A stretch of 62,382 nucleotides of DNA, filler included, from Jimgerdemannia flammicorona (Eukaryota): the NCBI GenBank assembly GCA_003990765.1. It is 3 parts of 3 records of this genome, joined end to end, with 100 filler letters (N's around TTAATTAATTAA, not from the genome) between each part and the next. Parts side by side here need not be neighbours in the genome. Positions count along the whole stretch, not along the records: positions 1 to 20,734 come from RBNJ01001599.1; 2 more parts are not named here. The stretch is one strand, 5' to 3'. The notes below the pieces were generated by a model. It was not told the origin of the DNA, ran no database searches, and was given only the letters and a program-made list of their open reading frames with translations. Positions 2,230-27,700 of the stretch are shown one piece after another. Every line of letters begins with the position of its first letter. The first letter of the stretch is position 1. A program made the translations under genes and the position numbers.

Positions 2230-5046
2230 AATTTTAGCAGCTCATATCCCACTAAGATTTCAAGTATATATATATCTGGATTATCTTAGCATTTAATATA
2301 CACCTCTTAGAAGTAATGAGATTTACCCCACCTGAGAACACCCACTCAATAAGAGTACTGGTGACAGGAATCACTAGATAGTCTCAAGTTATACTACATA
2401 GGCTGAGAAAGTCTATTTGATATAGCTGTAGCTATATGCCCTGGTAGGTAGAGCAGAGGTTAGAATAGTTGTTAGATTGGTAGATTAAATTAACCCAATG
2501 CAACCAACCACCTAACAATCCACCTTCTACCAGTTGAGTACCTCCATGCCTTTTAGCAGAATTATGTGGTCACTGGTAATATAAATGGTAAGTTTATTTA
2601 TTGACAATAGCTTTTCTACTGATAGCTCTCTCTTTCTCTTTTTGCTGAAGTAAATGTGAGATAGGAGAGATCTCTTGGTATATTTGTCTGGACTTTGGCC
2701 AGAACCTTGCAGTGGTGCATAGTTTTTTCAGTATGTTTTGATTATAGTCTGCTTGACTCCCTCAATATAGTACTGCTCCCAGTACTGTTCAGAAAAAGAG
2801 AGCGAGTTTTGTGAAGATTTCTCTATTTTGGAAGAGATAATGGCCATATGCTAATATACCTGTACTGATTGAGTATATGGTGGCATCTGTTTTGGAGTAG
2901 TATTTTCTGAGCTTGCTTAGAGCAATCTCCACAGTATTTCTCTGATCCAGGTTTAACTGTAAATCACCACAACCCTCTATCTATCCTCAAGCTTGTCCTC
3001 TAGCTGATCAATTAAAAGGTTATATATTATTATTGCAGAGCTTATTTTTGGGGTAGTTTGTTTGACTATATCCTTTATACAATCATCAAAATACTGGCAG
3101 TAAGATGTTATATTGTATAGAGGTAGATAAAATGAGTGTGGGGCCAGAGTAATTACTACTTATTTCTAAAACTCTGATAATATTTCTAAGTACATCCCAC
3201 TTGCTTTCATCTATAGCCTCACTCTGCATTTCTCTGTAGGCAGTAACCATTGAATCTATCAGCTTTTTTTAGTTTGTTTTTTTAAAAAAAAAAAAAGGAA
3301 AAAAAAAAAAAATTCAATCATCTGAAACAAGTTACTTCAGCTAACTAAAAAAAAGAATACATACTATAGCAAACTCTAGGATGTACTGGATCATTGCAAA
3401 TGTCAAGTTCCAATATATACAGATGTCCAATATTAGCTTTTTTAGGACTAAACTGATTGCCCTATACTGTATAGTAAATTTGTCTCATTATTGTAAAGAT
3501 GATCATACTGATACAATCAACTTATATAGTTTGGAAACTATACTCAGAGCCCTTTTTCTTTTGGATGTTTTGTCTATATATATGTATAAGATAGTCCTAA
3601 ATAGTAAGGTTCAGTATGTGGGCCTGGTATCATATATAATAGCTTTTTATACCAAAGGTTATTTAAGGCTAGCTGCTAAAACTTGGAAAAATGTTGAGTT
3701 ATTTGTTGTATTATCTGTCATAATGACCAAAATCTGTACTTAAAATATTCAGTCAGCAAATTTATGTGAAAATAAATAACTAATAAAATCTAGTTTGTTT
3801 TAAGACCTCTCTCAAAATACTGATCTGATAGTAAGCTCTCCTTTTTTATCTTAGTTGTGATCCTAAGCTCTTGGATACAACTAATAAAAGTATCTGTGAT
3901 GTTTTCTCCAGAATAAGAGCCAGCAAGTTTGATGAAGTTAAGGATGAGAGATTTAAGCTACCAATTAAGATCAATCTAATGATCAGTAATATCTAGAAAT
4001 GAAATTGTATTAGAGAATTCCATATATCAATTGTAAACAAAATTTTGTTTACCAAATTCTTTTATTGAATATAAAATTAAATTGGAGCTCTTTATAAATA
4101 TATATATATAATTTAGCTTGCAAAAGTTATAGTACTACTCTTATTTATTTATTTTATCTGAAATATCTTGTAAAGATTATTGTACTCCTTTCTATAGACC
4201 TCCAGGATATCTTTGTGAATAGTATCAGTACTTGGCAAATATAAATCATACTTGAGGAGGCTAAAAATACTATGTAATTGATTACTCTTAAAGGTTGTAA
4301 ATAGCTGGTCTGTGTATATAATCTAGAAAATGAGCTGATTTCGAAATTCTACCAAAGAGTATAATTAAATATTTTTGATTAAATAGGATTTTTGATATAG
4401 AAATAGTCAGGCAATTGGATAAATATACTCACTATAGCTTGGATACTGATTTTATTTATCTCTATATTCTTTTTGATTTTGTTGAAATACTTATCTTTTA
4501 TATATCAATATATATTCAAAGTTGAACTATCAAGTATTTTGAACTTTTGACTATATAGTTTATGAAGATAGATGAAATAGTATCATATGTATATCAAACA
4601 AAGTATTAATTATATCATAGATATATATATATATATATATATTTAATTTTTACCTATAATAGTTATAAACAATATTATCTCTTATCTTAATATAATGTTG
4701 CCAGATTTTAGAGTGAGGATTGTATAGAAGATATGGAACTATTGGAGATATTTAACTTAAAGTATCATCAGTACTGTAAACTATTGAAAACTGATCTATC
4801 AATATATATATTTGTATATATATATATTATATATGTATATATAGATATACATATCTGATATATAAGTCATATGGAGAGTTCAGATTGAAGAATTTAGTTG
4901 AAGAATTCAGATGAGAATTCAAATGTTGTGATTTGGATTAATCTAAGTTGATCTAGATTGCTTCAGATTTAATATTCAAATTAAACTATTATACATATAA
5001 TAAATCAAATCTAAATTTAATTTAAATTGACTTATTCAGAACACTA
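2230..5046 (-). mobile_element. Degenerate hAT (Ac-like) DNA transposon
   Basis: Minus-strand remnants: FTIDIW; SFLDITDH*ID.NW.LKSLILNFIKLAGSYSGENI; ILVIMTDNTTNN; LILDICIYWNLTFAMI (cf. LDVxTRWNST); and the hATC dimerisation motif LVIPVTSTLIEWVFSGG. Many stops. The right end GAACACTA at 5046 matches the TAGTG-type TIR of the MITEs. Confidence 0.85.
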
Positions 5047-5589
5047 GATACAATAGTAGAGACTTCAAAACATTGAGTTTACTGCTCTCTCATTGCTTTC
5101 CAGAAATTCAGTCAAAGTAATCTTCTAATATAAGATACCAAAGTCCAAAATAAATATATATTATTATAGTAAAGGTGATTTCTAGAGTTCAGAAGTAATT
5201 TGATTCAGAATTCTAGATACTATACTTTCTCAAACATTCAGCTCAGCCCAAAGTTGGTAAAAAGAGCAGACTCATCCTGTATGAATTTGTTATAGAAAAT
5301 GTATTCTGATTTTAGCTAATTAAATATGAGATATTTATAATATATTTATATTATTTATCAGAATATTACTACTATAAATATTATAGTGAATAATGAATAA
5401 ATTGTAATAATTAATATAATATTAATCTTTTCAGCCCATGGCTTTCCATAAAATATCTTGTTACAATGAAATATTTCTGAAGATATAATTGAGTTATATA
5501 GATGATAATATAATTATTTAAAAAAAAAAAAAAAAAAAAAAAATTCCAGATTTTTTCATCTATATAATATTAAATTTAATCATCTTGAC

Positions 5590-5946
5590 TAGTGCTCCAA
5601 AAACGAATATTCAAATCAATTCGAAGTGGTATTTGAATCGAATTGATTCGATTCGATTTGAACATTGTTTTGATTTCCAAATTAGAACACAAACATTTTC
5701 CTCAATACCTCCATGAGTTTTCATCCGATTTTGATGAAACCAGTGTGATTGGAAAGCTCTCTATAATGGCTTTCCAATGACACTAAGATCACTGAAATCA
5801 GATAAAAGCTCATGGAGTTATTGAGGAAAATGTTTGTGTTCTAATTTGGAAATCAAAACAATGTTCAAATCGAATTGAATCAATTCGATTCAAATACCAT
5901 ATATATCCACTTCGAATTGATTCGAATATTCGTTTTGGGAGCACTA
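5590..5946. mobile_element. Palindromic hAT-type MITE with 8-bp TSD
   Basis: TAGTGCTCC...GGAGCACTA termini and near-perfect inverted arms over most of the 357 bp. Flanked by ATCTTGAC (5582-5589) and ATCTAGAC (5947-5954). Confidence 0.9.
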
Positions 5947-6482
5947 ATCTAGACAGAATTATTTTGTAATGCTACAAAATTGGATCATCTTGAGAATGCG
6001 CACTTCTTAAATCTGTTGACCATCTCGACATGTTAGCACGTGATATTACGTCACACCTGTTACGTCATCAAATTACTACGCCACATATCAAAGTACACGA
6101 CTTACATATTATCAATAATAACACCCTTCTTTCTCCTCCGCTCCACTCCAGTACTCTGGCTATTACACAACATCTGATGTATGTTTCAGTTGCACTTTGA
6201 CAGAAACTTCATCTTTTATATCTTTTTCAGTGTTCAAAACATCCATGTGTATCCACCCCTGAAAGCATTCTTTTGAGGAAAGGACAGATTTTCAAAAGCG
6301 ATAATGTCCAACACCAATTGCTCCGGCTCCTTGTTGATATCAATTCCTGTCATATGTAGCAAAAGATACATTGAATAATGTATGCAAATCAACTGCAGAA
6401 ATTAAATGATGGAATAAAATTCACCACACGAATCTGTTTTTCCTTGGCCTTCTAGGCCTAGCCAGACGCTCTCCAATAGTTC

Positions 6483-8308: not shown

Positions 8309-11300
8309 TTAACGTCTTAATAGAATGAGCTTGGCGCACCATTGCCTGATCAGTCCACCCACAGATTGGGGCCTATAACGGGATTTTTTCTCTGAAAAAT
8401 GCACAAATACTCACAGGTCAGCTGGATCGAATCACCCACATTCAAATAGTAACACACGGATTTCCGACATACCTTCGAGATTCAGCTGGGTAAGGGTCGT
8501 GTTCTGCTTCAGAGACTCGGCCAGAGCACGGGTACCGTCAGCGCCGATTTTGTTATCTATGAATATTCACAGGTCAGCTGGATCGAATCACCCACATTCA
8601 AACAGCCACACACTGACTTCCGACATACATCCGAGATTCAGCTGGGTAAGCGTCGCGTTCTGCTTTAGAGACTCGGCCATAGCACGGGCACCGTGATCGC
8701 CGACGCCATTCTCTGAAAAAGGCACAAGTCAGCTGAATCGAATCACTCACATTCAAACAGTCACACATTGATTGCCGACATACTTTCGAGATTCAGCCGG
8801 GTAAGGGTCGTGTTCTGCTTAAGAGTCTCGGCTATAGCGCGAGCACCTTTATCGCCGATACCATTCACTGAAAAATGAACAAATACGCAGTGGTCAGCTG
8901 GATCGAATCACTCACATTCAAACAGTCACACACCGATTTCCGACATACTTTCGAGATTCAACTGGGTAAGGGCTGTGTTCTGCTTCAGAGACACTGACAG
9001 AGGACGGGCACTATTGCGGCTGATGATGCTAAACCCTGAAAAATGCACAAATATAAACAGAATCAGCTGGATTGAATCACTCACATTCAAACAGTCATGC
9101 ACTGATTTCCGACATACTTTTACTTTTGCGATTCGACTGGGCATGGTTCATGTTCTGCTTCAGAGACTCGGCCAGAGCATGGGCACCCTCATAACCGATG
9201 TTATTCCCTGTAATATTCATAAATACGCATAGGTCAGTTGGATCGAATCACCCACATTCAGACAGACACACACTGATTTTCGACATACATTCGAGATTCA
9301 GCTGGGTAAGCGTCGTGTTCTCCCTCAGAGACTCGGCTAGAGCATGGGCACCCTTAGCGCCGATTTCGTTATCTAAATAAATATGCAAAGGTCAGCCGGA
9401 TCGAATCACCCACATTAAAACGGCCACACACTGATTTCCGACATACTTCCGAGATTCAGCTGGGTAAGGGTCGTATTCAGCTTCAGAGACTCGGCCAGAG
9501 CACGGGCACCCTCAGTGCCGATTTTGTTATCTAAATGAGTACACACAGGTCAGCTAGATCGAATCACTCACATTCAAACAGTCACACACTGATTTCCGAC
9601 ATACTCCCGAGATTAAGATGGGTAAGGATCGTGATCTGCTTCAGAGACTCAGCCAGAGTACAGGCACCCTCATCTTTGATACTATTCCCTGAAAAATGCA
9701 AAAATACGCACAGGTCAGCTGGATCAAATCACCTACATTCAAACAGCACACACTGATTTCCGACATACATTGGAGATTCAGCTGGATAAGGGTCGTGTTC
9801 TGCTTTAGAGATTCGGCCAGTGCACGGGCACCCACATCTTTGATGCTATTCCCTGAAAATGCACAAATACTTATAGGTCAGCTGGATCAAATAACCCACA
9901 TTCAAATTGCCACACGCTGATTTCCGACATACAGGAGAGATTCAACTGGGTAAGGGACGTGTTCTGCTTCAGAGACTCGGCTAGAGCACGGGCACCCTCA
10001 TCTTTGATGCTATTCCCTGAAAAATGAACAAATACACACAGGTCGGTTGGATTGAATCACACACATTCAAACACCACACACTGATTTCCGACATACCTTC
10101 GAGAATCAGCTGGGTAAGGGCCGTGTTCTGCTCCAGAGACTCGGCCAGAGCACGGGCACCCTCATAGCCAATGCCATTCCCTGAAAAAGTCACAAATACA
10201 CACAAGGTCAGCTCGATCGAATCACCCACATTCAAACAGTCACACACTGATTTCCGACATACAGAGGAGATTCAGATGGGTAAGGGTCGTGTTCTGCTTC
10301 AGGGACTCGGCCAGAGCACGGGCACCCTCATCTTTGATGCTATTCCCTGGAAAATGCACAAATACGCACAGGTCAGCTGGATCGAATCACCAACATCCAA
10401 ACAGTCACACTGATTTCCGACATACTTTCGAGATTCAACTGAGTAAGGGTGGTGTTCTGCTTCAGAGACTCGGCCAGGTCACGGGCGCCCTCATGTCCGA
10501 TGCTATTCCCTGGAAAATGAACAAACACGCATAGGTCAGCTTGATCGAACCACCCACATTCAAACAGCCACACACTGATTTCCGACATACCTTCGAGATT
10601 CAGCTGGGTAAGGGACGAGTTCTGCTTCAGAGACTCGGCCAGAGCACGGGCACCCCCAGCGCCGAATTTGTTATCTAAATGAATACGCATAGGTTAGCTG
10701 GATTGAATCAAACAGTCACACCCTGATTTCCGACATACCTTCGAGAATCAGCTGGGCAAGGGTCGTGTTCTGCTTCAAAGACTCGGCCAGAGCACGGGCA
10801 CCCACATGGCCGATGCTATTCTCTGAAAAAAAATGTACAAGTATGCATAGGTCAGCTGGATTGAATCACCTACATTCAAACAGTCACACTATGATTACCG
10901 ACATACTTGAGAGATTCAGCTGGGTAAGCGTCGTGTTCTGCTTCAGAGACTCGGCCAGAGCACAGGCACCCGCATTGCCGATGTTATTCACTGACAAATG
11001 CACAAAAGCGCACAGGTCAGCTGCCACGTTCAAACAGTCACACACTGAATTTCCGACATACCTTCGAGATGCAGCTGGGTAAGCGTTGTGGTTTGCTTCA
11101 GAGACTCGGCCAGAGCATAGGTACCCTCATGGCCGATATTATTCACTGAAAAATACACAAATACGCACAGGTCAGCTGGATCAATTCAATTCAAACAGCC
11201 ACACACTGATTTCCGACATACCTCCGAGATTCAGCTGGGTAAGGGTCGTGTTCTGCTTCAGAGACTTGGCCAGAGCACAAGCACCCTCAGCGCGGATTTT

Positions 11301-12289
11301 GTTATCTAAATGAATACGCACATGTGAGCTGGATCGAATCACCTACATTCAAACAGTCACACACTGATTTCCGACATACCTTCGAGATTCAGCTGGGTAA
11401 GGGCCGTGTTCTGCTTCAGAGACTCGGCCAAAGCACGGGCACCCTCATTGCCGATGTTATTCCCTGAAAAATGCACAAATACGCACAGGTCAGCTGGATC
11501 GAATCACCTACATTCAAAAAGTCACACACTGATTTCCGACATACCTTCGAGATTCAGCTGGGTAAGGGCCGTGTTCTGTTTCAGAGACTCGGCCAGAGCA
11601 CGGGTACCCACATTGTCGATGTTATTCTCTGAAAAATGCAAAAATACGCATAGGTCAGCTGGATCGAATCACCCACATTCAAACACTGATTTCCGACATA
11701 CCGTAGAGATTCAGCTGGGTAAGGGTCGTGTTCTGCTTCAGAGCCTCGGCCAGAGCACGGGCACTCTCATAGCCGATGCTATTCCCTATAAAATGAACAA
11801 ATACGCGCAGGTCAGCTGGATGGAATCACCCCATTCAAACAGTCACACAAATTTCGGTCATACATTCGAGATTCAGCTGGATAAGGGTCGTATTCTGCTT
11901 CAGAGACTCGGCCAGAGCACGGACCCCGTCATCGTCGATGCTATTCCCTGAAAAATGAACAAATACGCACAGTCAACTGGATGAATCACCAATATTCAAA
12001 CAGTCACACACTGATTTCTGACATACTGGAGAGATTCAGCTGGGTAAGCGTCGTGTTCTGCCTCAGAGACTCGGCCAGCGCGAGTACATCCTCAGCGTCA
12101 ATACGCCCGCCTGAAGTTGAATAGATGCATGAGCAGATACGCACAGATCGCCAGTTGGAACTCGTCATACAGCTGCAATCAACAGGTCACTCTGTTCAAA
12201 CATACCATAGAGATTCAGCGTAGACTGGGTCGTGAGTAGAGTCTTCATGTTTGTGTAAGAAGCGATAAGAGCAAAGCGATAAATGTCGC
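8309..12289 (-). CDS. Multi-exon RNase-inhibitor-like (NLRC3-type) 28-aa LRR protein, one LRR per exon; ~686 aa if started at ATG 12248
   Basis: Exons 5'->3': 12289(or ATG 12248)-12206, 12110-12027, 11947-11864, 11785-11702, 11628-11545, 11463-11380, 11305-11222, 11145-11062, 10990-10907, 10822-10739, 10674-10591, 10509-10426, 10346-10263, 10180-10097, 10016-9933, 9852-9769, 9688-9605, 9530-9447, 9372-9289, 9207-9124(or 9118), 9035-8949, 8867-8784, 8712-8629, 8556-8473, 8391-8309 (TAA). Introns are GTATG...YAG, mostly with a CTGAC-type branch site, all phase 1. No in-frame stop after splicing. Consensus xNxIGxEGARALAESLKQNTTLTQLNLx. Confidence 0.88.
8392..12110 (-). repeat. Tandem array of 23 exon+intron units of ~150-170 bp
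   Basis: The intron consensus GTATGTCGGAAATCAGTGTGTGACTGTTTGAATGTGGGTGATTCGATCCAGCTGACCTGTGCGTATTTGTGCATTTTTCAG recurs in every unit. Confidence 0.95.
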
Positions 12290-12353
12290 CTAGTAAAGAA
12301 CTTTATTCCTAACCCTAGCCCTGGTCATCTGATAGCCGTTCCACACAATCTAA

Positions 12354-12614
12354 GTCAACTGCACGCTAAACCTCAATAGCTCTCTCTCTGGTCTGTGCGC
12401 TCCCCCGCAAGAGGTCCTCGGGAACATTCACCTGCACATTGCCGCATGCCACGACTTCGTCTCCTTCGCCCTCACGAGTTGGTTCAACGCAAACGTTGCC
12501 ATTACCTTCTACATGCCGAAGCGGTGGTTTCGACCTCTGGATGCAAATACACTCTTACCGACGTGGCATCTGCGACAGATCTTGCAAGTGCCCAACCCCA
12601 CCACCATTACCTGA
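12354..12614 (+). pseudogene. Possible F-box-like fragment
   Basis: The frame reads LSGLCAPPQEVLGNIHLHIAACHDFVSFALTSWF, resembling the F-box consensus LPxEILxxIxxxLxxxDxxxxxxVS. No ATG before the motif, and stops downstream. Confidence 0.3.
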
Positions 12615-12967
12615 TATAGGTCGTCCAAAAGGCTGTCTGGTGCACCCAGTCGTACTTGTCATCAAGCTACAAAGAAATCTTTATGAAGTGCTCGAAGCTG
12701 TATCCCAAAATCATCATCTCTGCATCACTGACAAGGTCGTTGCCTTCGCCATGCTCGCCCTCTTACCGACATGAGATTCGCTTTGACGGGGAGTGGGCTG
12801 TCAGAGATCGTCATTCCCAGGGAAGTGAGGGTCGCGCTTTGTCATAGGTGCAATAACCCGATTGGGTATCATGCTATTTTGTTGGGTGCGCTTGTTAACC
12901 CAACCGTGGCCATGGGGACAGATGCAGGGGGGAAAGAAAATAGGGATTGAGGTATCGCCTGGAGACT

Positions 12968-13099
12968 GTGTTCCCGTACTGAGGCCATAATAACTTGACG
13001 GATGTTTTCTTCACACTGGACCCCAGAATACCTCCGTGTTCCCGTACTGAGGCCATATGATAACTTGACAGATGTTTTCTTCACGCTGGACCCAGAATA
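12968..13099. repeat. Two-copy ~69-bp tandem duplication
   Basis: TGTTCCCGTACTGAGGCCATA..ATAACTTGACxGATGTTTTCTTCACxCTGGACCC occurs at ~12968 and ~13037. Confidence 0.8.
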
Positions 13100-14699
13100 T
13101 CGCATTCTCTGACCCCACCCCACCATCTCCATCTCCAACCTGACTCCCTTCTCCTCTTCAACCCCTCCCCGTCACCACCAAGCCCCCTCCTTAGCCACGC
13201 CTCCTTCCGCATCGTCTTCCGCTACATCAAATATACAGTTTTGGCACACCCCTTAGATGCAATGATTTCGCGACTTTACTGAGCGCCATTTTCTGCTAGA
13301 CATAGACCTGACACGCGGGTTGCGGTGCTGTGTATAGCTGGATGTAGACAAGGTGATGGCTAGATCATGTTCTTTGAGGGAGCAAGCATCTGCGATATGT
13401 GATGTTTGATTACTATATCATTTTCATAAATCTTATTTAATAATATATATTAATTTACAATATAATATAATAATATTAAATTAGTAATTTTAAATAATAT
13501 ATTTAAATGAAATATTTTTAAATTTCTAAATATTCTTATTATAAATATATTAATATAAATGCTTAAAAGTTATATTTTATAATTAAAATACTTCAGAATA
13601 ATATATTTATTAATTATAAATTATAAACTTATAATTAATTAGTAAAAACCCTATAAAACTTACTAAACTTAATTAAGCTAATTAGAATATTATATTATTA
13701 TTTATAAATTTTAAAAAATATTAAGTTAATTATATTAAATTATATTTTAAAAATAATATTTTAGTTATTTTTTTATTTTAAATTTCTTTTATATACTCTT
13801 TTTAGCTATTTATATTTTATCTTTAGAAATATTATTGTTAAACTTTTTACACTTTTTATAAATCTATAATATTTATTATATCTTTATTATCTATATTATT
13901 TTAATTTTTATATATTTATTAATTATTATTATTATATATTATTATTATTTAAATTAGTAAAGTTGTTCAAATTCTGCCTATCCTATATTTAGTTGAAAAA
14001 CTACAATAATTAAAGATAGTACTCTCTGTAGTTGACATATTTCATAATCTCTTATAGAATACAGTAGTAGAATACTTTGGATCTTAGGATTTAGAAGACA
14101 TCTAACTAACTGACAGAAATAGTATACAATCAAATTACTTTACTTATATTATTATTATTATTATTATTATATAGAGTATAACTATAATATAACTAATTTA
14201 ATGATTTATTATTAAAAATATATTAATTAAATTATTAATCTATCTATTTGTTGAGATAACTTGTGATTTATATGTAGCGTCATTAATTGCCTACGTCACT
14301 AACTTTACGTCATCATTCATAACGCGTTACCTGCATATTATCCGCTCTTTATATACATCCCGCGTTATCATATAATTTACTTTATAATAATTTAGTATCT
14401 AAATTTCCTATTAGATATATATTAAGAAATAATATTAATAACAAATATAAAATTACAAAAATTAAATTACATTTGATATATTAAGAATACTAAAAGCAAA
14501 ATACTTTTATAATCAATTAATTCAAGTTAGGGTAAATTTCATTAGAAACTATATCATAATTTCTATTCCAATTAAATATATAATATTTATAAAAATCAGC
14601 ATATATCACTACAATCTAGTTTGAATTCCATAAATTCATCTGTATCTCTAGCAAGCAGTTGGCAAAGCTTATAGGAATTTGAACAAACTGCCTTAAGTT

Positions 14700-15000
14700 T
14701 TGACTACCAGATCGCCACCTTCTCCAATGTGCGCTTTTGGTCAGCCTGATGCGGTTCATTTCTGGGCACAATATGGTAGGTTATTACTATTATTTGTGTT
14801 GATTTTTTTTGATTTTTTGCTTGTTTGCTGACTCGAACCGGCAGAGTACATCAAGGGACCAGACATTGACCTACTGGGATTGCGATTTCGCCCAAAACTA
14901 CAGGGTCTGCAAATACATTGACGCCAGCGAGGGCGGCCCATACGTGATTGCAGAATCCGAGATTTTCAAACACCATTCTCCAATTTTAATACTAGGTGTA
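14700..15000 (+). pseudogene. Possible WD40-like gene fragment
   Basis: CpG-retaining island with an intron-like GTAGG...CAG (~14776-14844) followed by STSRDQTLTYWD, which resembles WD40 S-x-S-x-D-x-T-L-x-x-W-D. The upstream part has a stop. Confidence 0.2.
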
Positions 15001-15432
15001 ATTAGCATATCCGGCACGACGAATAACAGTGTCGCGTTCGCCTTCGTGTTAAAAAAGGGCAATAATACTCTCAGTTTCCCCACGAATATAAAATAAAATA
15101 AAATAAAATAAAAAGTGATGCGCTCTAAGGGTTTCTCCCCCAAGACCAATCCAAGTACAATGTCGGAACATGCCCTTGCAAATGAAAGCTATGGTGGTGC
15201 ACCGGTCTGATACCACAGTGAGGGGAGGATCAAACCATCGCGCTCCAACACTCCAAAAACACTATAATACTGATCCCCCCTAGGCTTGAACGATGTTTTC
15301 GTGAATCTATTAGTCGAAAAATTACATATTAAGCGATTCGATTACTAAGGATATAAAAAATTGGGACCCACAAAATTAAACGACGCAACGTACAAATAAC
15401 AGTGAAAATGGCTATATGTAAGCCAAACAAGC

Positions 15433-18400
15433 CTAATCAAATTTCACGTCGCCAGGTTTGTTCTCCTCCTCCCATTCGTGAATATCGTCAGGTTTCGCCT
15501 CATAGAATATATCGTCCGGAAAGTTGGTTTTGTTCCGACGTTCCCGAGGAAGCATCCAGAAACATTCTATTTCCGCAATGGCCTGCAGAATAAAGATTCA
15601 CAAGATGAGTGCCAGGCGTGATTGCGGCGCGAAAACTCCACGCTTGTAAAGTATGCCACATACCTTTGCCCGCTGCAACCTGAAGGATGCCCCAGCATCC
15701 TGGAACGCTTCAGCATAATTGTCACCCAGCATAGCAATGAGCAAGTTGAGAAGGTAAACCATTGCGACGAAGGTGAACATGAAGCGGAATATATCGGCCA
15801 TGTGGCTAAACCCATCCCAGGCCTGCAGCCCGGACATGTCGCCCGTGATCCCCCAGTAAGTGTTCTTGAGCGAGGTTGAGAAGCTGCTGAAGGCGTTGGG
15901 GTCACCTTTCGGGCCGGTATCGTAGTTTCCGAGTAGTGCCCAAGTCCCGTGCCCGAAACCCACGAGGATGACGAATACGACGGCCAAGAAAGGAATGATT
16001 TGTTTCACACCGCTGAGGAGGGTGTTGACAAAAATGCCGATGGCTTTGAAGACGCGTAGTTGCTGGAGGAAGTGCAGCCATAGCAACAAGATGGTCAGGG
16101 CCGTCAGGTCGGTCTGAGTGCCCACATACCCAGCCTGCAAGTTGTTGACAGATATAGTGATGGGCAGGATATAGCACAGAAGGTCGATGAAGTTGTACAC
16201 GTTGAGGAAGTATTTCTTCGGGCCGTGGTAGATCAGTTGCCTAATCTCGTGACAAAGGAACAAAGAGCCGAGGGAGATAGCGCCGATTTGGAACTGAACC
16301 GACCACGCAGGCCACGCTGGCGGGTCGGAATTAGCGGGATACCGCTGCACCATCGGGTTCGTAGAGACGAACCAGAGGACCATGTATATAATCTCAACCA
16401 ACCAAATCAAGAGCCAACGGAACGCGGCATACGAACGCCATTTGAAATCTAAGCGAGGTTTTCGTAAAGCGTTGATTAAGATCAGGATCAGAAAAAAAAA
16501 AAAAAAAATCCGTTTGCAATGGCAAAACTCCTGAGGGGGTATCGTGGGATTCATACGTACCCAAGACTACATCCCAAAAGTCCGCCTCGAAGACCTCTTG
16601 GGCATTTTCCGAGTGAACAATCTCGGTGAAAACGCTATGCGCTTTCCAAATACCGTTCTGGCGGATAGGTGGGTCTCCATATCTTGTAGGGCGAAAGCAG
16701 AATGAGGTATGTAAGTTTCAGGGCAGGGAGGAACACAAAAACGAGGCGCTGACAATCAAAGCGGAACGATCGATACAAATGAGAGTCGTCTTCTTCGTTA
16801 AGATACTCGAAGGCACAGATTCTCCTCAGCGGTACGATGCAAAGTGCATGAAGGGTCTTCGTCTTGTTTTCTTCCATCAATCTCATTTGGTAGAGGAGCC
16901 ACTTGAACGGCGACCGGTACCATGTCAAGCGTAAGTTGCGATCGAACGATACACGCCCGTACATGAAAGGGAATTCACTGAGCAACCTGAGCTGAACGAT
17001 ATTATGTTCGTCGCTACTAGATTTCCCAGGTTTCCTTTTTACAAGCGTAACCTTGGTATAACCAACGCGGCAGAGAACTTTCTGGGCGTATTTTGGATAA
17101 TGTGCGATGATGGTTGGGAAAACAGCGGATACGTCGATCATGAAATCTACAGGATAATCATGAAGTTCAATCGTTAAACTTGACACAATAAGGAACAGAA
17201 TTCGAATAGTGCACCAATGTAAACCTAACCTGTTGGCACGAGTTGATTGCTCTTTTCATCCACGATGAGAGGTTCCGGAGGTTTCTTCTCCTTCCCCTTC
17301 TTTGAGGTTTTCTTGGGCTCAGAAACCGTTTCTAGCGTATCCGATTTGGGTTTAGCAAACATACCACCTTTCGGATGGCGCCTTGTGTGGTTATTTTTCC
17401 CCTTATGCGACGTGGGCGACATTTTCTCCTCTTCCAAAAACGGCATGTCTTCCTCCTTCTTTTTCACATATAGGTACATTGACTCCTCCGGAATGGGTGT
17501 GGTGTTCAGCGTGAGGAGCCTGGCAACTTCTTTTCGCAGCGATACTTCCGCAACCCCGCGAAGAATATGTTTGTCCGCCGGGATGACGTCTCGATCCTTA
17601 TGCCGGTACTTGTGGCGGATGACGCTCTCCCAAACTGAGTGACTATACTTGATGTAACTTTTGTCGGTGATAGGCGGTAGCTGAGGACCTTGTGGAATTT
17701 GCTTGGCCAAGGGTTCTGAATGATTGAGAGGAAATTTTGCCGAGTTAGTTCACGCGTTGGGATTTAAGAATACCGCAAAAAAAAAAAAAAAAAATGATAC
17801 GTTACCTGCAGGTTCCAGTTCCGGTTCCGAATCCGGGATCGCATCAACCGTAATATCCACACCGTCCTCGTTGAATGGATGAAGTGCGACAAGGACAAGA
17901 TCGTCTACTACGTCCTCAACCGTGCTACTTAAACCAATCCGCTCGGTAATGTCGACGCTATCATCACGAGTAACCGACATATTGATGGCGACATGGTCGG
18001 GGACTGGTTTAGAAACCTCAACTTTTCTTGCTGACGGAGATCGACGCAACTCGCCGTCGCCAGGAGGCGTAGGCTTTACCGTCTGCTTCACTGGCGACAC
18101 AGGAGCCACATGTTCGTCATCGTGAGGCACTGTCTCCACCTGTTCGTCATCGTGAGGCACTGTTTCCACTTGTTCGTCATCGTGAGGCGCTGTCTCCATT
18201 GACTGCCTCACTGTCTGCCTCACTGGCCGCATACGAGCAACCTGCTCGCCATCACGCGGTGGTGCCTCCTCCGGCTGTCTTACTGGTCGCACTGGTCGCA
18301 CACGAGCCCCCTGTTCGCCATCACGCAGTGGTGCCTCCACCAGCTGTCTTACTGGTCGCATACGAGTCACCTGTACGCCATCGGGAGACGCCGCTTCCTC

Positions 18401-20716
18401 AGGTGGCGTCATTGATCGCTCAAGAACCACATTGCTATCACGCCGTAATGCCTTCAGCAACTGCCTCGCTGACCGAGCACTATCTTTTGTTGCAGTTCTC
18501 ACCGGACGCGGCCGAGGCTCAGCAACCATTGGTACCATTTCCAGAGTCCGATTCATTGCCTTTGTAAGGTCGTACCCGGGATCAATGCATTCCGTCACGA
18601 GGTCGTTCTCGATGGCATTGCTGTCGGCCCTACGGTCGATCTCCCCTTGCGGAGAGCGCGTGCCAGGAATCGTAGCACTCCCGCCCTCCCCCCCTTCAAC
18701 AAGTCCCCCCATGTCATTCCAGTCGGTGGTGGTGTTCTCTGTATCCTCTATGGCACTCGTGTGGGTGGTAGTGTTCTCTGCATCTTCTATGTTACTCGCG
18801 TGGGTAGTGGTGTTCTCTGCATCCTCTACGTCCCTCGTGTGGGTGATGATGTTCTCTGCATCCTCTTTATCACTCGTGTGGATGGCGGTGTTCTCTGCGT
18901 CACTCGTGTGGGTGGTGGCGTTCTCTGCATCCTCTATGTCACTCACGTGGGTTGCGGAGTTCTCTGCATCCTCCATGTCACTCGTGTGGGTGGTGACGGT
19001 GTTCTCGGCATCATCTATGTCACCTGTATGGGCGGCGGCGTAGACCTCGGTGTGGTTTTTGAAAAAGGAATCAATAGTTCCAGAGCGATTGTTCACTTTA
19101 TGCACGAAGTCGGGGCCAGGGTTCGAGATGACTAATTCTTCAGGTTCCTCTACTAGAGGCAAGCCGAAATAGTCATGCTCGCCGGTGAAAGCGCGGGCGG
19201 GCGTTGGGTAGGGATCTGATGAATGAATTGCGGATGGGCCGGGGAGGGTATCTTGTCTCAGCATTTGCCGGCTAATTGCTTCTGGCCACCCATAAACGGG
19301 CCCGGGGGTAGGGGTATATTGTGACCAGTAACCGGATTCGGTCGAAGGTTGGCGAAACAGAGGAGGCCTGCGCTTAGGGTTCCAAATCCCCGAGGGCTTG
19401 CGGATGTTCATGGGCGGCTCCGGGCGTGGGGTTTTGGGCTGCGCAGCGTTGTCTGTGCGTTTTTTGATGACGAACGTAGTTTGGGTCAGGGTGGCAATCG
19501 CGCAGTCAACCAATGTCACGACGGACCCTTCTTTAAGGGTTCTGAGAGTGGTGCCGATGGCAAGCCTGGGATTCGCCTGACTAGAGAAATAGCCTTTATC
19601 GGTGGCAAACCATTGTTGGTTTGGCGCGCCGCCCGCGGCCTTGCGTTCGATTCGCAGATTTCCGCCAGCCACCGGAGTCCCGATTACTACAAAAACGGAT
19701 GACAACACGAGTGAGATTTGAGCTGTAATTGTGTGGGCTACATGAGACGAGAAGAAGTGGGCATGAAAACGTACTAGTGACCACTCTGCTCGAATCCTTG
19801 TTGACCAAGTACCCGTTGCGGAAGGCCCACAGCTGTTTCTTGGCATGGTAGTTTTTCTCGACCGCGAACACAATCCCACCGTCCTCACTGGCTTCCCATA
19901 CGAAGTGAGTACGGAACCTGCGAATCACAAACCACTGTGCTTTGTGTTCGTTTGATGAAGGCGGCGGGACGATCTTTGATTCCTTGGTCATGACGTCTTC
20001 AATCACTATATCGTTAAGAATGTCAAATGTTAATTACGGCTGGTAACACAGCTAATACTCGAAAACGTCATGATGAATCTTATTGGTACGTGCCTTCGGT
20101 TGGTTGTTTACGTGGGGTGTCATTACCGGCTCTCATGGAGAAAGGACTCTCGACTATGGGACCAGTGGTTGAGAAAAACTCGTCGTCGATGGAAAGCCCA
20201 ACCTTGAAGTTCCAGCTTTGCCTTTGGCGCGCCGCTTTGCCCTGTTCGGCTTCGACGAGCTGGATGCGGCCGTCGAGGTCGTCCACAACTAGATAACAAT
20301 CCGCCTTGGTGAACAAGAGACCATCCGATGTGCAACCCCATTGTTGGTTGTGATAGTTGAAAGGGTTCTTGCACGAAATAATAATTGCCGCATCGGCTTC
20401 ACTGCGGCCTGTTGATACAAAAGAGAATTAAACGGTTAAAGCAAAATTATATGCATTATATATTGGCAAGCGCAGTTGGGAACCTGTTTTTATGTCACAT
20501 TACCATTTTCAACATCGAGCACATGGTCAGTCCCATCGTTGATCAGAACGCCGTTCTGCGCACGCCACAGCTGGGACTTGTAGTTAACCCTGATGTCACA
20601 TTCCTGCAAAACCAATTTGTCTTCCTTGACGCACAGGACCTTGCGTGTGGACCACTGTTCAATGAAGAAGGGTTCTTTCGGGAAATCGAAGAGCCCGAAA
20701 CGGAACGGTTTCTCAT
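15433..20716 (-). CDS. Ricin-B-type lectin domains + low-complexity linker + fungal TRP-like ion channel; >1,500 aa, 5'-truncated by the gap
   Basis: Phase-consistent exons 20716-20504, 20408-20094, 20005-19775, 19686-17806, 17715-17230, 17146-16777, 16682-16561, 16448-15664, 15582-15433 (TAG). Lectin-like motifs: FPKEPFFI..SQLWRAQNGVLIN..VLDV, NQQWGCTSDG, KQLWAFRNGYLVN, NQQWFATDKG. Channel motifs: LCIVPL, DFKW, six hydrophobic segments with YNFIDL, pore FSSFSTSLKNTYWGITGD, LLNLLIAMLGD, TRP-box-like FRLQRAK-AIAEIE. Confidence 0.85.
18107..19035 (-). repeat. Coding tandem repeats in the linker of the lectin-TRP gene
   Basis: About 8 copies of ~13-aa TTHTSDxEDAENT (~39 bp, 18725-19035), about 3 copies of ~20-aa RxRPVRQxxEAPxRDGEQ (18200-18400), and 3 copies of 10-aa ETVPHDDEQV (30 bp, 18107-18197). 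Confidence 0.9.
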
Positions 20717-20734
20717 CTACCCCGCAAAAAAAAA

Positions 20735-20834
20735 NNNNNNNNNNNNNNNNNNNNNNNNNNNNNNNNNNNNNNNNNNNNTTAATTAATTAANNNNNNNNNN
20801 NNNNNNNNNNNNNNNNNNNNNNNNNNNNNNNNNN
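20735..20834. other. Assembly gap with six-frame-stop linker
   Basis: 44 N + TTAATTAATTAA + 44 N. Confidence 0.97.
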
Positions 20835-22022
20835 TTTTTTTTAAGTAAATAATACTATAGATCATTTATTGAATAAATAATCAAAGCAGTTATATATCAA
20901 TTTAATTATACATACTTAGCCAGAAAACTACAAATTATTACTTAGTCAATATATATAAATACTCTAGCAATTATATTTGAAATAAACCAGCTCTTAGTTA
21001 AGTATCAAATATAAGAAGTTCTCTCTCTATACATATTCTTCTGAGTTTTTAATAATGATACCTAAGTTACTCTAATATTTCTGACTAAACTTCAGAAGTC
21101 TAGCTAACTTCTGCCAGAATTGAGAACTGATATATAAAGCTAAAAGAAAACTTCTTTGAATCTAAATTTTAAGATATTTAGTCTATATATAGTAAGAATA
21201 AGTCTTTTATAACTATGGTTACAAAAGAAGAGCAATATCTTTATTTTGCTATAAAGAATCTATACTTCCTTAATCTTAGTAAATACTACTAATTGAAAGA
21301 ATAATTAAAAGGCTTAATACATATATATTAAGTCTCTAAGTAATATATATCTTATTACTTAAGTTATCTAAAAATATAAGAGGAGTTGAAATAAGTATTA
21401 TTACAACTTAATAGTAGCAGAATTCTGAGTTAAGATAGTATCAGACTTTTTTATAAGTTGGAACCAAGATCCAATATTAGACAGAAGAAACTCAGAACTA
21501 ACTATAGATAATTCAAGAATTAACTTATAAACTAAAACCTATCTTATAATGACTATTAAGACTAGATATATTTAGGAAAATACCAATCAAGATCTCAATC
21601 AATAGCTAGTAGACCAAACTTACTAGAATTTATATAAGGTATTTAGAAACCACCATTCAGATCTTAGGAATATCTGCAGCTACCATAAGTTTAATATTCT
21701 TATTGAAAACTATACTAGTCACACTAGGACTTCAGAATTGATTACTATAATTAACTAGAAATTTTTAAATCATATCTTTGATTCTGAAGTATAAATAGTA
21801 GTCAAAGAGTAGATTGATTCAGACCAATATTACACTATTCTAATCTGAACATCTCTCTATTACTGGGTAGAAATCTACTATATAAACTCAATAATCAGAC
21901 TAGAATAAGAATGATTAGATCTACTTCTATGTATAAACTTCAGAATAAGAAGTAAGCCCAGCTACTCAACTTAGATTAGAAATTCTTTTTAAAGAACTAA
22001 GTTAATACTATAACATTCAGAC

Positions 22023-22373
22023 TAGTATTCTAAACAAATTATATTAATTCAAATCAAATCAAATTGAGAGTTATTGAATTGGAAATTTTTGAATTTAAAT
22101 CAAATTTAAATTAAATTGAGATCTGATTTAATTTGATTTGAAATATTTATCTCAAATTCAAAATATAATAACTTAATAAAAATATATCTAAATTTAATAT
22201 TCTTTATTGTACTAGATTCTCTATTATAAGATATATCGAATAAGCTGAAATTTATTAAATTTAGATATGTTTTGATTGAGTTATTAAATTTTGAGAAATT
22301 ATATTCAAATTGGACTTCAAATTAAATTGAATTAGAGGTAAATTTGATTCAATTCAATTTGTTCTAAGTACTA
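22023..22373. mobile_element. Second hAT-type palindromic MITE
   Basis: TAGTATT...AGTACTA termini, internal inverted arms, and 8-bp TSD ATTCAGAC (22015-22022) / ACTCAGAC (22374-22381). Confidence 0.8.
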
Positions 22374-24714
22374 ACTCAGACTAATTAAGACAGTAGACTC
22401 TAAGGAAGACCTAGAAGAATACCAATCTAATGATAGCCAACAGAGAACTATAGACCTAGGAATTTTTCAACTAATTATCTTTAGCAATTAAAAGAGCTAA
22501 GAACTTTAGATATCTGAACAATATCAGCCACCAGTCTAGAGATTTAGACTGCTCACTCTCACTAATCTATTTGATCTTCTTTCTAGAAACCAAGTAATCT
22601 TAAGTTATATAACACTTTAACTATATTAAGCAGAACTCTCATCAGAAGAATTAACCCTTATAGTACTATTATCTATAACTATAATGACTGACAGACACAT
22701 CCAAGCTCTGATCTAGTAGCTGGTAGCTCTGGTAGAAATAGTAGACCAGATAGTCAAATAGAATAAACCTACTAAGAAATTGTAAATTCCAACCTTTAGT
22801 AGAAAAAACAGTAATATTTAAAGTTTTATCAATATAGTTAATTAGAATATTATACTATTCAGTAGAATGATAATTGAGTACCTATCTGAATACTTATTAA
22901 TAATATTGATAGTATCCTTTAGTGACTATTTATTATATTAGTAGCCTAGGTAGAAATAGTTGTAACTGTTTTCATAAAAACAGTAGCTAAGTTCTAATAT
23001 ACTATAGAAGAACATCTAGTAATCTGAAAAGATTATCCTCAAGTTGATGAACAGAATCCAACCAATGTCAGACCAGAATAAGATGACCATAATATAGCCC
23101 CAGGACTCAAGACTCTTTTATTAAATAAATTTTGAAATATAGCCTATATTCAGAAAACCTAAAATAAGCTGGCCCATATAAAGTTTTATAAGAATGATAA
23201 GAAGGATCTCAAAACCTTTACTATCAGAATAGATGCTTATCTCAAGACTATGAGAATTACCTATCAGAAGAACAATTAAACTATCAATAGTACTAGAGTC
23301 AACTATCTCTTTATATATAGTCTTATCAGATTGACTCATTCAGAAGATCAAGAAATAGGGCCTTCTTTAAGGATACAGATACTACTCATAGTGTTTTGCT
23401 CAAGTGCAGCAAAAAGTCTACAAAATTCTAGCTACTCAGATCTCACAAAACTGAGAACTCAAGGAGGACTAATAAAATAAAAGAGCTATTACATCTGAGA
23501 ACAAGGACTAGAACAGCCAAAAGAACTATAGAAGAACTAAGTCATATAGTGATAATGAATAAAGACAACTTCAGAAAAAGGACCTGTACTTTATTTATAA
23601 GAAAAAAAGATAGATATTTTATAATTATCTAGAAAAAAAGAACAAAGGTTCTTCCAGTAACTTGAAAAAATATAATATCACTATAATTAGAGAAGATCCA
23701 GATAAGAGAAGCTTAGAAAATATTATCAAAGTATAGAAAATATTCTACAAGACCACCATCTCTACTAAGACATACTCAACCAATATAGACTATAATATTT
23801 ACAATAGTCAGAATCTCACTATTCTACTAAGCTCAAATATAGTAGTATAGATAGATATTGAAATGTAAGCCCTCAAATAAATCTACATCTATCTAGCTAA
23901 ACAAAGTAGCCTGACTAAAGAATTCAATATTAGTCTAAGAGGAGAAATTATTAATCAAGACTTTATAGAAGAAATTCAAGTCATTCTGCAAAATTTTGAT
24001 AACATATCCTTTAATATAAAGATTGATCAAAGGATTGCCCAAGTTATTATCAAAAAGATCCAAGAAAACCTCACTATCAAAGAAGTTTCTAAACTAGATA
24101 AGTCTGACTGAGGTAAGAAAGGATTTAGCTCTACTAAACAAACTTTCAACAAATAAAGAGTCAATATAGTTAATGAGAATAGTGATAAAACCTAGTATCA
24201 GAGAATTGTAAATAGTTATGTACTATGAAAATGATGCTCTCATTCTATCTGAATATATGTACTATATAGAATATATTAGTAAATACTATATATGTCTCTC
24301 TGAAGTTTTTAAGATCTAAACTGCAAGATGCTAAGCTAAAGAGATAATAGAAGAACCCAAACCAGACCACATTACTTATAAAGGATGAGATGAGACTGAC
24401 TTTAAGAAGAATGAAATAAATTGGGATAATAATAATAAACTCAATACTATTATAAAAGAAGACAGTTAGTTTGAAAGATAAGCCAAAAAAAAACTATATA
24501 ATAGTCTTATTAAATAGTAGTATCACAGAAAATTATATCAGCACTAAGATAGCTAAAAGAATTATAGTCCAAAATAAGTCAGTAGTTGAAAGAAATAAGT
24601 TATCTTTAGTAATAGAAAGACTTAGCCATTAATCCAAATTTGTAAAAATCTACTATTTAAGATTGATAAGTATCAAGAGAGGCTAGACTTTAGTATTGTA
24701 GATTTTTTAGAATA

Positions 24715-27700
24715 TATAATAATTTTACAGTTATATCTAGTTTTAGTATATTTTTACATCTTTTAGTTAGTCTTTTCTTATTATTTCTTGAACATTCTAC
24801 TATATTCTATCATCTTCTACTTATTTAGAAATCTTCTCTTAGTATCCAGATACTATTAGAACACTCTTGTCTTTCCTTAGTACCAAGTGTCTTGTCTTAG
24901 CTAGTCATAGAACCTTTTGGAACATTGTAGAACCATATTAGTCATCTTTGCTGAAAACTTATTTCTTGGCATTTCTCTTTCTTTCCAAGATCCTTCTGGA
25001 TCTTTCTTTCAGATCATATATAAATATTCTTGTTCTCTATCTAAATAAAGCTCAGAATATTTTCTCTCAGAAATTCTTCAAGAATACATAAACCTTTAAG
25101 TATCTCTTTAAGCTACTTTAGACTAACTAGAACTTCTATTAGCCACTTCCTCTTTAAAGAAACTAGAACTGTTACATTTGGTAGCAATAGTATTATTATA
25201 TCTTGCTATAGTTTCTTGATTTCCAGGTATGTGTATATTACCAGAGTTAGTAGAATATGTGTGAGCATAATACCATTTTGTTTTAGAACATGAGAGCAGA
25301 AGTTTAGTGGATATTGGAGAAATAACATAACTTTTTGCTCTTGGAAAAAAAAAAAAAAAAAAAAAAAAAAACATTATATCTTGCCTTATTAAGAAACCTC
25401 ACACAAATCCAGAAACCAGTCACAACTAGTTATATGAACTTGAAATGAGCCATGAAGAGTCAGCCTACCAGCCAGACCCCTCTACTACAGAAGAAGTAGG
25501 AGAACCACAGCTTGGCATAGAGGATATGATTAATGCTATGACTCATCAAATCTAAGAACTTCAAGTATAACTAGAATAGCAGAAATAAGAACTATAAGTA
25601 CATTATATTCTGCTATAATACTAGTTAGTTTCAAACCACTCAAGCCAGATATCTTTGATAGTCATTGAGGAGGACTATCTATAGATATATGGATCTTTCA
25701 GTTAGACCAATACTTTGAGCTTACAAGAATGGAAGAAGATATACAAGTTTAATTTGCCACTATACTTCTCTGAGAAAATACAGCTATCTAGTGGTGCAAT
25801 TATATTATAGTTACATCTATACACTCATATGCATGAATCAGAGACTGGGAAGCTTTTAAGAGAGCCCTTCATAAGCAGTTTAAGCCTGCTAATGCTACCA
25901 AGCTAGCTAGAGACAAGCTAGCAAACATTAAGCAACTCAAGTCTATATGAAGCTATAATGTATAATTCTTGTCAATCTTACTTAAGCTACCAGCAATATC
26001 TGAGAATGAAAAGATAGACTGCTATATCTAAGGCCTGAAGGGAAATATACAAGTTAAGGTTGAGCTAGAAGAGTCCAAAAACCTTAATGAAGCCATGAGA
26101 ATCACTGATAAGTTTGATGTCATCATCTTTAGTAACTATTTTGAACCAGAATACTATAAGAAGAACTACTTCAAGAACTGCCACAAGAACCAACCAAGGA
26201 CAGTTAGCCTGGTACCAATGGACTTAGACACTATAAATAAAAAGAATACCAAGCTCACCCCTGAAGAAAAGGACTATCTGAAGAAATCTGGAGTCTGTTT
26301 TTTCTGTTGCCAAATAAGACACATTGTAACCAAATATTCTAAGAAGACTAGTAAACTTCAAGATTAGTTACCATGTTGTCCAAGGATACATCCATCAACC
26401 CCACCACTAGTCAACCCAAGCTCAAGATCAAGAAGCTTCATCTGAAGGCCCAGGCCCCTCAATATCAAACAGAAGGAATTATTGGTATTGACCTACACTC
26501 TGCCAAACAAGTCACCATTTCAGCCAAGAGCTGAACTCTGGTGCCTACTGGAATTGCAGTTTAATGTCCTAAAGAATATTATGTTAGAATTGTACTATAA
26601 TCAAGACTCAGTATTAAATATCATTTAGATATAGATACTAGTGTCATTCACCCAGACTTTCAAGGACAAGTTCAAGTTCTACTTATCAACCAGAAGAATC
26701 AAAACTACATAGTCAAGGAAGGAGACTGAGTTATGCAAATGATCCTAGAAAAAGCCAGTTAACTTAAGATTACAGAAGTCTAAGAACTCCCTGAAACTAA
26801 GTGAGACCAAAAAGGTTTGAATAGCACTGATCAAGCAGCAAGTCTTACTGAAAATTGAGCTCAAGCTATACTTATTTTCAAAGGCCTAATTAAAGGAAAA
26901 GAAGTTCAAGTACTTATAGACAGCAGAGCTGCAGGGAACTTCATCAATCAGAACCTCATTGAAAGCCTCAAGATTCTTATCAAACCTGTATCTAAGAATA
27001 ATAGTATAGTAACTACAGATGGTACTCTACACCCCATTGAGTCAATTGTTACCAAACTACCTATCAAGATTCAGAAATATTGGAAATAAGTAGACTTCAA
27101 GATTATACCACTAGGAGATTATGATCTGATTCTAAAAAAACCCTGGCTTATGAAATATAACCCAGACATTAATTAGTGCAAGAATGAAGTCACCTTACTT
27201 AAAGATAGAGCCAACATCACTATCAAGATAGATAAGACCACAAGTAAGACCCAGATTGCAATACTGTCAGCTATATAGTATAAGAGAGCAAACAAGAAGG
27301 AAATGCATACCTTTATTATAATAGTCTGTCCCAAGAAAAAAGACAAGAGACTATTAGTCAATAAAAGCATTAAGTTACTGCTAGAAGAATTTAAGGATAT
27401 CTTTCCAGACAAGCTATCTGGCCTACCACCTATATGAGAAGTTGATCATGAAATTGAACTGACCCCAGAAACTGTACTACCCAAGAAATACATATACTAC
27501 ATATCACTACTCAAAATTAAAGTAGTTAAGAAGAAACTAGAAGAACTACTTATATAAGGAGTTATTCAGTCAAGCAAATCTCCTTATGGCTCACCAGTCT
27601 TATTCATTAAGAAAAAGTATAGTACTCTGTAAATATATATAGACTATCATATACTCAACAAACTCACTATCAAGAACCACTATCCACTACTTTTGATTGA

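Follow-up and report, generated by a model that had tools for sequence, protein, structure and literature searches.

We analysed a 62,382-nucleotide (nt) stretch of DNA (three parts of the genome joined by filler letters, hereafter the window) from Jimgerdemannia flammicorona, a root-associated fungus of the Endogonales (Mucoromycota), taken from GenBank assembly GCA_003990765.1. The minus strand of the window carries, at 12248..8309, a gene that consists of leucine-rich repeats (LRRs) only, and most of it is a tandem array of 23 units, each made of one exon and the intron behind it, in which the introns resemble one another from end to end. In our judgement this array probably results from one past amplification, or one past sweep, of the exon+intron unit, followed by independent decay of the copies and diversifying selection on a few exon codons. 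The original prediction for this DNA had read the same likeness as the work of ongoing unequal crossover or gene conversion; that reading is not supported by the star-like site pattern, the Poisson spread of intron divergence, the recombination test at neutral sites (p=0.35-0.77) or the single exact tract of at least 48 nt, all of which are described below.

Structure of the LRR gene

The gene model was built by setting a donor at every GTATG and picking the acceptor that preserves an 84-nt exon, and it was translated in frame. Parsing and translation gave 25 exons and 24 introns, all of phase 1, and the frame is open through all 25 spliced exons, from the ATG at 12248 to the stop at 8311-8309; upstream of the ATG, a stop lies in frame at 12303-12305. 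The product of ~690 amino acids (aa) contains 28-residue RI-type LRRs only. The parts of the gene are as follows.

8309..12248, minus strand: whole LRR-only gene, an open frame by parsing and translation, including the C-terminal exon
12206..12248, minus strand: exon 0, 43 nt, with the start codon and a degenerate leftover of the end of a repeat (from translation)
12111..12205, minus strand: intron 1, 95 nt, an old divergent member of the array intron family at the array edge (65 of 100 aligned columns match the consensus)
8392..12110, minus strand: array of 23 units (exon and following intron), unit ~165 nt (from Tandem Repeats Finder, parsing and alignment)
10510..10590, minus strand: intron 11, 81 nt, inside the read-through open reading frame (ORF) at 10373-10693 (from the ORF listing)
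8713..9288, minus strand: exons 19-22 and introns 19-22, with splicing seen in RNA contigs (from contig joints)
8309..8391, minus strand: last exon, a short non-repeat tail that opens with a decayed repeat start (from translation)

The array exons (E1-E23) are 84 nt long in 21 of 23 cases, with E19 at 90 nt and E20 at 87 nt. Introns 2-24 measure 64-84 nt, the range that had been claimed for the array. Tandem Repeats Finder finds 20.7 copies of a 165-nt period, with 80% matches; it also offers a period of 328, and the two-unit higher-order repeat that this might indicate was rejected, as units at lag 2 show no extra identity. There are thus 23 one-repeat exons with a single intron phase throughout, and because each array exon, set between phase-1 introns, has a length divisible by three, the gain or loss of whole units preserves the reading frame.

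The 28-codon period and the pattern LxxLxLxxN-x-(I/L)xxxG are visible in 20 regular repeats, and 17 of the 23 single-exon peptides match Pfam LRR_6 (PF13516) at E<=1, each under the gathering score of 23.4 bits. The single-exon scores fall below the threshold because the intron splits the profile, so that each exon is half of two profile copies; the unspliced 106-aa ORF reaches 18.3 bits and a relative of the array, P0001, reaches 33 bits. By period, pattern and profile match, the repeats are classed as RI-type LRRs. No NOD-type domain was found upstream of the array, where five of the longer ORFs of 12250-15600 (both strands) were scanned and have no Pfam match at E<=0.1, and with neither NACHT nor NB-ARC N-terminal to its repeats the predicted protein would not be counted among the NLRs.

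A few further observations concern the array itself. The repeats encoded by E19 and E20 (8949-9207, minus strand) are irregular and have largely lost the LRR pattern, and they are still spliced into contigs of two runs. Intron 11 lacks an in-frame stop, and its retention would add 27 residues in frame; among the exon-frame ORFs listed, it is the sole intron inside an uninterrupted ORF from one LRR exon to the next. On the plus strand, antisense open frames of 207, 138, 129, 117 and 105 aa run across array exons and introns (11328-11951, 10118-10534, 10693-11082, 8879-9232 and 8379-8696). Probably the repeat structure itself gives rise to them, the likely cause being that 165 nt equals 55 codons and one antisense frame is free of stops.

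Expression and splicing

Contigs were taken from two runs, X1 and X2, which carry one organism label and whose run type ("RNA?") is a guess. Spliced contigs of the LRR gene occur in both, from which it follows that both runs contain RNA of this gene; the gene is expressed. Exact splice joints are present at 9206/9288, 9034/9117 and 8867/8949 in both X1 and X2, and record 8 of X2 joins 8629-8712, 8784-8867 and 8949-9034 (exons 22, 21 and 20) with 0-1 mismatches. Splicing therefore confirms four of the 24 introns, namely 19 (9288-9208), 20 (9117-9036), 21 (8948-8868) and 22 (8783-8713); the remaining 20 are predicted, on the grounds of their GT..AG ends, the open frame and an exon period of 84 nt.

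In the one spliced contig of each run that covers it, E19 uses the donor at 9117, giving a 90-nt exon and an 82-nt intron, and the 88-nt intron with an alternative donor that had been proposed here was not seen. One X1 contig is unspliced across intron 14. The order of exons 20-21 is identical in X1 and X2, with exon 22 added in X2, as far as short contigs under the same organism label extend. Other joints, comprising skips of 133-3364 nt, joints that go back along the gene and joints with foreign letters between the two sides, were not counted as exon skipping or rearrangement; they resemble what paralogous LRR transcripts or graph artefacts would give when mapped to the common exon core.

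Introns and exons compared

A single consensus runs through the aligned introns for their full length, from donor to acceptor. Their mean pairwise identity is 86.8%, compared with 79.5% for the exons, and it stays at 85.4% when the donor, branch-point and acceptor signals are removed. The original prediction was right that the introns are as alike as the exons, which they in fact exceed, that the consensus reaches well beyond the splice signals, and that the repeat unit is exon plus intron.

Exon identity differs little by codon position (78%, 81% and 79% at positions 1, 2 and 3), and exon variation is concentrated in repeat codons 28, 1, 3, 5, 6 and 7, around the splice junction. Codon 1, which the intron splits, encodes 10 different residues across 20 repeats. 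The ratio of nonsynonymous to synonymous divergence (dN/dS) is 2.54 at these six hypervariable codons and 0.31 in 19 core codons, as calculated by the pairwise Nei-Gojobori method (NG86) over pairs that are non-independent. The exons are less alike than the introns because the six junction codons are hypervariable, and a few codons of the array are thus under diversifying selection, as in HNWD-type repeats. The six codons presumably form the ligand-facing part of each LRR, with a putative role in binding.

The comparison of intron divergence with exon synonymous-type divergence, which had been suggested as a check, gave a p-distance of 0.146 for the intron interior (bootstrap confidence interval (CI) 0.110-0.182, 70 columns) and 0.126 for exon-core third positions (bootstrap CI 0.085-0.164, 16 sites), with overlapping intervals. 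Since the two are equal within error, the introns diverge at the neutral rate of the unit, and neither special homogenisation nor constraint is needed to account for them.

Two exon subtypes lie where they had been reported. The NSIKD(E/V)G exons are E12, E14, E15 and E16, which end at 10263, 9933, 9769 and 9605, and the N(K/E) exons, which follow a short TTTAG/ATAG acceptor, are E6, E10, E17, E18 and E23 (11222, 10591, 9447, 9289 and 8473). The claim that the subtypes are interleaved rather than clustered stands for the short-acceptor type (positional clustering p=0.58) and fails for the NSIKD type (p=0.007); an intron variant with GTGAG (introns 17, 20, 21 and 22) is likewise clustered (p=0.014).

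Genealogy of the units

Maximum-likelihood (ML) trees of exons, introns and whole units are star-like, with internal branches contributing 15%, 12% and 9% of the length, and none of the ~20 internal branches reaches an ultrafast bootstrap (UFboot) value of 95 in any of the three. The separate trees for exons and for introns, which the original prediction had called for, could thus be built but hold too little structure for their congruence to be judged. Units far apart in the array are no less alike than close ones (introns 0.86-0.88 over lags 1-14; Mantel tests against position, exons p=0.10, introns p=0.59). The substitutions that separate each of the 23 introns from the consensus have a mean of 5.83 and a variance of 5.33 (index of dispersion 0.92, p=0.57), and this Poisson spread is as expected if all copies have the same age.

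The 81 intron columns comprise 27 invariant and 54 variable ones, the latter being 36 singleton-only and 18 informative columns. This site pattern was set beside three simulations, as follows.

Observed introns: 36 singleton-only columns; pairwise standard deviation (SD) 0.035; minimum distance 0.038
Star-tree simulation: 21-39 singleton-only columns; pairwise SD 0.034-0.036; minimum distance ~0.05
Kingman genealogy simulation (steady-state homogenisation): 5-8 singletons; SD 0.076; minimum distance 0
Own-genealogy-per-site simulation (very short conversion tracts): 8 singletons (range 4-14); SD 0.031; minimum distance 0.044

The simulation in which each site has its own genealogy also yields 47 invariant columns (range 39-56), compared with the 27 observed. 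The singleton-rich pattern therefore rejects equilibrium homogenisation for any tract length and fits a star genealogy.

Exact tracts common to units are short. Only one reaches at least 48 nt (59 nt, in the adjacent units 4 and 5), and tracts of at least 30 nt number 34 among the 253 unit pairs, of which 14 span the junction, 10 lie in introns only and 10 in exons only. Duplication of blocks of several units was considered and rejected: the shift-1 correlation is r=0.39 (p=0.0014) in the raw data, drops to r=0.14 (p=0.023) once these are centred and is gone in introns alone and in exons alone, and it arises because a subtype block straddles the chosen unit boundary.

Related arrays

The query for relatives was the natural 106-aa ORF of the window (10373-10693), which is two exons plus intron 11, unspliced. 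It retrieved further read-through ORFs from environmental and public assemblies, in which the exon core is common and the intron stretches differ. Ten read-through ORFs, including that of the window, were compared in their introns; they come from fewer loci, as P0001 and P0044 share one. Between ORFs of different loci, the intron stretches are 13-48% alike. P0001, an ORF read through four introns, is the only one of the ten with several complete introns, and its intron stretches are identical at 23 of 23 and 19 of 20 positions, with exon stretches matching at 22-25 of 29. On its sequence, P0001 appears to be the same pattern in a younger sister array. Part of the array intron aligns with the introns of P0001 and P0086, which indicates that the exon+intron unit predates the individual arrays.

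A metagenome scan with an exact 22-nt intron stretch returned 0 loci, and one with a degenerate exon-core pattern returned a single locus of 1489 nt, L001, which is the end of another array and has two near-identical introns of a different type. The introns of the array are iterated introns of the spidroin type, full-length copies of one another within the gene that differ from the introns of related arrays and of L001.

Searches with the 106-aa ORF returned no protein identical to the LRR gene, and the gene may be absent from public annotation though the product of its neighbour is in NCBI. A MYND-domain LRR protein of J. flammicorona (P0105 / P0164) is present in both public assemblies; its 8 less uniform repeats follow one order in both, the shared part differs by only 2 residues, and the two assemblies are very close there.

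Past amplification or ongoing exchange

In the explanation that we favour, one ~165-nt exon+intron unit would have been copied in tandem, either through growth from one or a few units or through the sweep of one unit across an older array. The most likely mechanism, we infer, is out-of-register recombination or replication slippage, so that unequal exchange, as the original prediction had it, is supported as the natural route by which the array arose. The copying would have been confined to a short past period, apparently a single episode, and the 23 units would have diverged independently since then, with the introns as neutral passengers. Purifying selection would have kept the exon core of 17-19 codons constant, and diversifying selection would have pushed junction codons 28, 1, 3, 5, 6 and 7 apart. 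The introns would look homogenised because they are of the same age as the exons and free of diversifying selection. They would then serve as a built-in neutral clock beside the exons, which exposes the selection on the six junction codons, and the array would be what remains of a single episode of amplification, not a machine that still shuffles its units, which tempers readings of its sister arrays as diversity generators.

Ongoing concerted evolution, in which repeated unequal crossing-over or gene conversion keeps the units alike and the introns extend the homology tract, is an unlikely alternative that has several observations on its side. The low likeness of introns between loci that share an exon core, the introns of P0001 (75-100% identical among themselves) and the paired introns of contig L001 are all of this kind, and a study on spider MaSp2 has already put forward the hypothesis that iterated introns aid homogenisation (PMC9779670). 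Further points weigh directly against a single past episode. The pairwise homoplasy index (PHI) test is significant for whole units at window 10 (p=0.0012) and borderline at window 5 (p=0.053), and it is significant for exons alone (p=0.0006-0.01). Intron 1 and both array ends are more diverged, an edge effect that is classically expected from unequal crossing-over. Toward the 3' end, divergence from the consensus climbs weakly (rho=0.48, p=0.02), so the ages of the units are maybe not strictly equal, and an excess of singletons can also be produced by weak purifying selection on the introns. Both exon subtypes are sharply defined across ~14-30 nt and decoupled from their flanks, the flanking introns being no more alike within a group (p=0.33-0.66); this mosaic look could be due to old short-tract conversion or to fast selected change in the hypervariable codons. 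A one-time sweep is, moreover, itself concerted evolution, and a burst and episodic homogenisation are inseparable from one genome.

Against ongoing exchange stand the following results. The PHI test, another of the suggested checks, is non-significant on introns alone (p=0.38-0.77), on core third positions plus introns (p=0.35-0.69) and on the variable 5' part of the exon alone (p=0.10-0.20), and it becomes significant only with the hypervariable exon sites (p=0.0006-0.05), so that its signal comes from selected, spatially clustered exon sites; a passage in PMC5100051 gives the test low power on alignments so short. Every intron pair is at least 3.8% apart, and neither the singleton-rich pattern nor the Poisson spread of intron ages is compatible with exchange at equilibrium. 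Recent or ongoing exchange would be recognised by near-identical units, long common tracts and a neutral recombination signal, and by these signs no such exchange was seen in the array.

Recombination drops steeply with sequence divergence. Against this general background, the present array, with 87% identity and short perfect tracts, is a poor recombination substrate. The introns do lengthen the homology between units.

A further reading is that whole arrays have been renewed in many episodes, within a large family of Endogonales genes with one LRR per exon, and that the star-like pattern was left by the latest of these renewals. From time to time, one exon+intron unit would sweep through an array or expand in it anew, the look-alike introns would act as a pairing scaffold, and selection would then diversify the junction codons again. 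We regard this as speculative and of low probability. If true, a fungal recognition repertoire would go through a germ-line cycle of reset and rediversification, and the nuclei of one mycelium might be mosaic in copy number.

It is equally improbable that the intron sequence is held alike by selection, for splicing signals that define very short exons or for some other function, in which case the array could be old. The part from donor to branch point is 88.7% uniform, compared with 77.8% behind the branch point, the start and partly the middle of the intron are recognisable in P0001 and P0086, and purifying selection would leave the same excess of singletons. However, intron divergence is not below that of exon-core third positions, lengths vary over 64-84 nt with deletions of up to 11 nt within the conserved part, and the introns of different arrays have diverged much further than their exons. 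A structured or known RNA in the introns was rejected, as no Rfam match was found at E<=0.1 and the four of 24 introns that were folded are no better than their own shuffles (z +0.13 to +1.59).

An assembly artefact, that is, a collapsed or mis-joined repeat, is very improbable: a 3.7-kb tandem array is the type of sequence that short-read assemblers handle poorly, and 386 of 681 mapped X1 records fit two places, but the units differ by 13-20%, which is enough for unique assembly, the reading frame is unbroken across 25 exons, and independent contigs, from two runs, match three exons in a row with 0-1 mismatches and with exact joints.

Surroundings of the gene in the window

The neighbouring gene, at 15598-about 20000 on the minus strand, encodes an Ion_trans / PKD_channel-type protein. 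In the aligned part, which covers 82% of the query, its 322-aa exon and J. flammicorona BC938DRAFT_473573 are 100% identical, and ion-channel paralogues or alleles at 90%, 77% and 74% identity occur under the same species label. A 724-aa open frame at 17750-19924 (minus strand) has short repeats of the DAEN type and the PVRQ/DDEQVE type and is without a Pfam match; it may be part of the N-terminal region of the channel gene.

Fragments of a Ty1/copia-type retroelement, with matches to RVT_2, Pol_BBD and gag_pre-integrs, lie at 52743-55638 on the minus strand. GC skew is extreme in two places, +0.40 to +0.53 over 5 kb (32001-37000) and -0.45 to -0.50 over 3 kb (57001-60000). Blocks rich in AT (GC 22-30%) with short AT-rich tandem repeats occupy 3001-6000, 13001-15000 and 21001-25000, between genes of ~45-55% GC. 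A run of N at about 20700-20790, which appears as X in ORF translations, was taken as an assembly gap.

Comparison with known systems

In the titles and abstract openings of the papers listed by searches on Jimgerdemannia LRRs and on fungal NLRs and LRRs, we found no description of fungal one-LRR-per-exon arrays with co-duplicated introns. The comparisons that follow draw on passages of the cited papers.

Among the NOD/NLRC/NLRP proteins and RNH1 of vertebrates, ~28-residue RI-type repeats show strict exon-repeat modularity (Hoss et al. 2019, PMC6642158). The array resembles them in its short repetitive exons, a layout that allows an entire repeat to be gained, lost or skipped without a change of frame. 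It differs in that the gene has no NACHT domain.

The LRR-ROCO genes of Ectocarpus have one LRR per 72-nt exon, undergo shuffling and have been put forward as a receptor repertoire open to diversification (Zambounis et al. 2012, PMC3341825). Both systems encode one LRR per exon in tandem exon arrays, and both have hypervariable residues, which face the ligand in Ectocarpus and presumably here. The LRR class and the exon length differ, with 24 residues compared with 28 here, and the spare or inverted LRR exons inside Ectocarpus introns, which are evidence of shuffling there, have no counterpart seen in the array.

The original prediction had likened the array to the WD40 repeats of the HNWD/NWD genes of Podospora anserina, which are up to 100% identical, polymorphic in number among isolates and subject to interlocus exchange (Paoletti et al. 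2007, PMC1805685). The two share a fungal repeat domain with highly similar units, in which few surface codons are under diversifying selection on a constant scaffold. The resemblance is not borne out for exchange. The HNWD repeats are attached to a NACHT domain and reach full identity, whereas the array gene has no NOD domain, its units are 79-87% identical and the exchange tests are negative.

The introns also invite comparison with those of the spider silk genes. In Argiope MaSp2, small iterated introns are highly homogenised inside each gene and have diverged from one gene to another (Baker et al. 2022, PMC9779670), and the same holds, with iterated introns, for Nephila Flag (Hayashi & Lewis 2000, according to citing passages in PMC3563967 and PMC9779670). 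Inside one gene, spidroin introns share 97.6% identity on average (94-99.7% in MaSp2; PMC9779670), compared with 86.8% in the array, which bears no sign of recent exchange. In both systems, a repetitive coding region is cut into exons of like size by small, mutually copied introns that are more uniform than the exons and specific to the gene. Whereas the spidroins are low-complexity fibre proteins, the product of the array would be a folded LRR solenoid of a fungus, with site-specific hypervariability.

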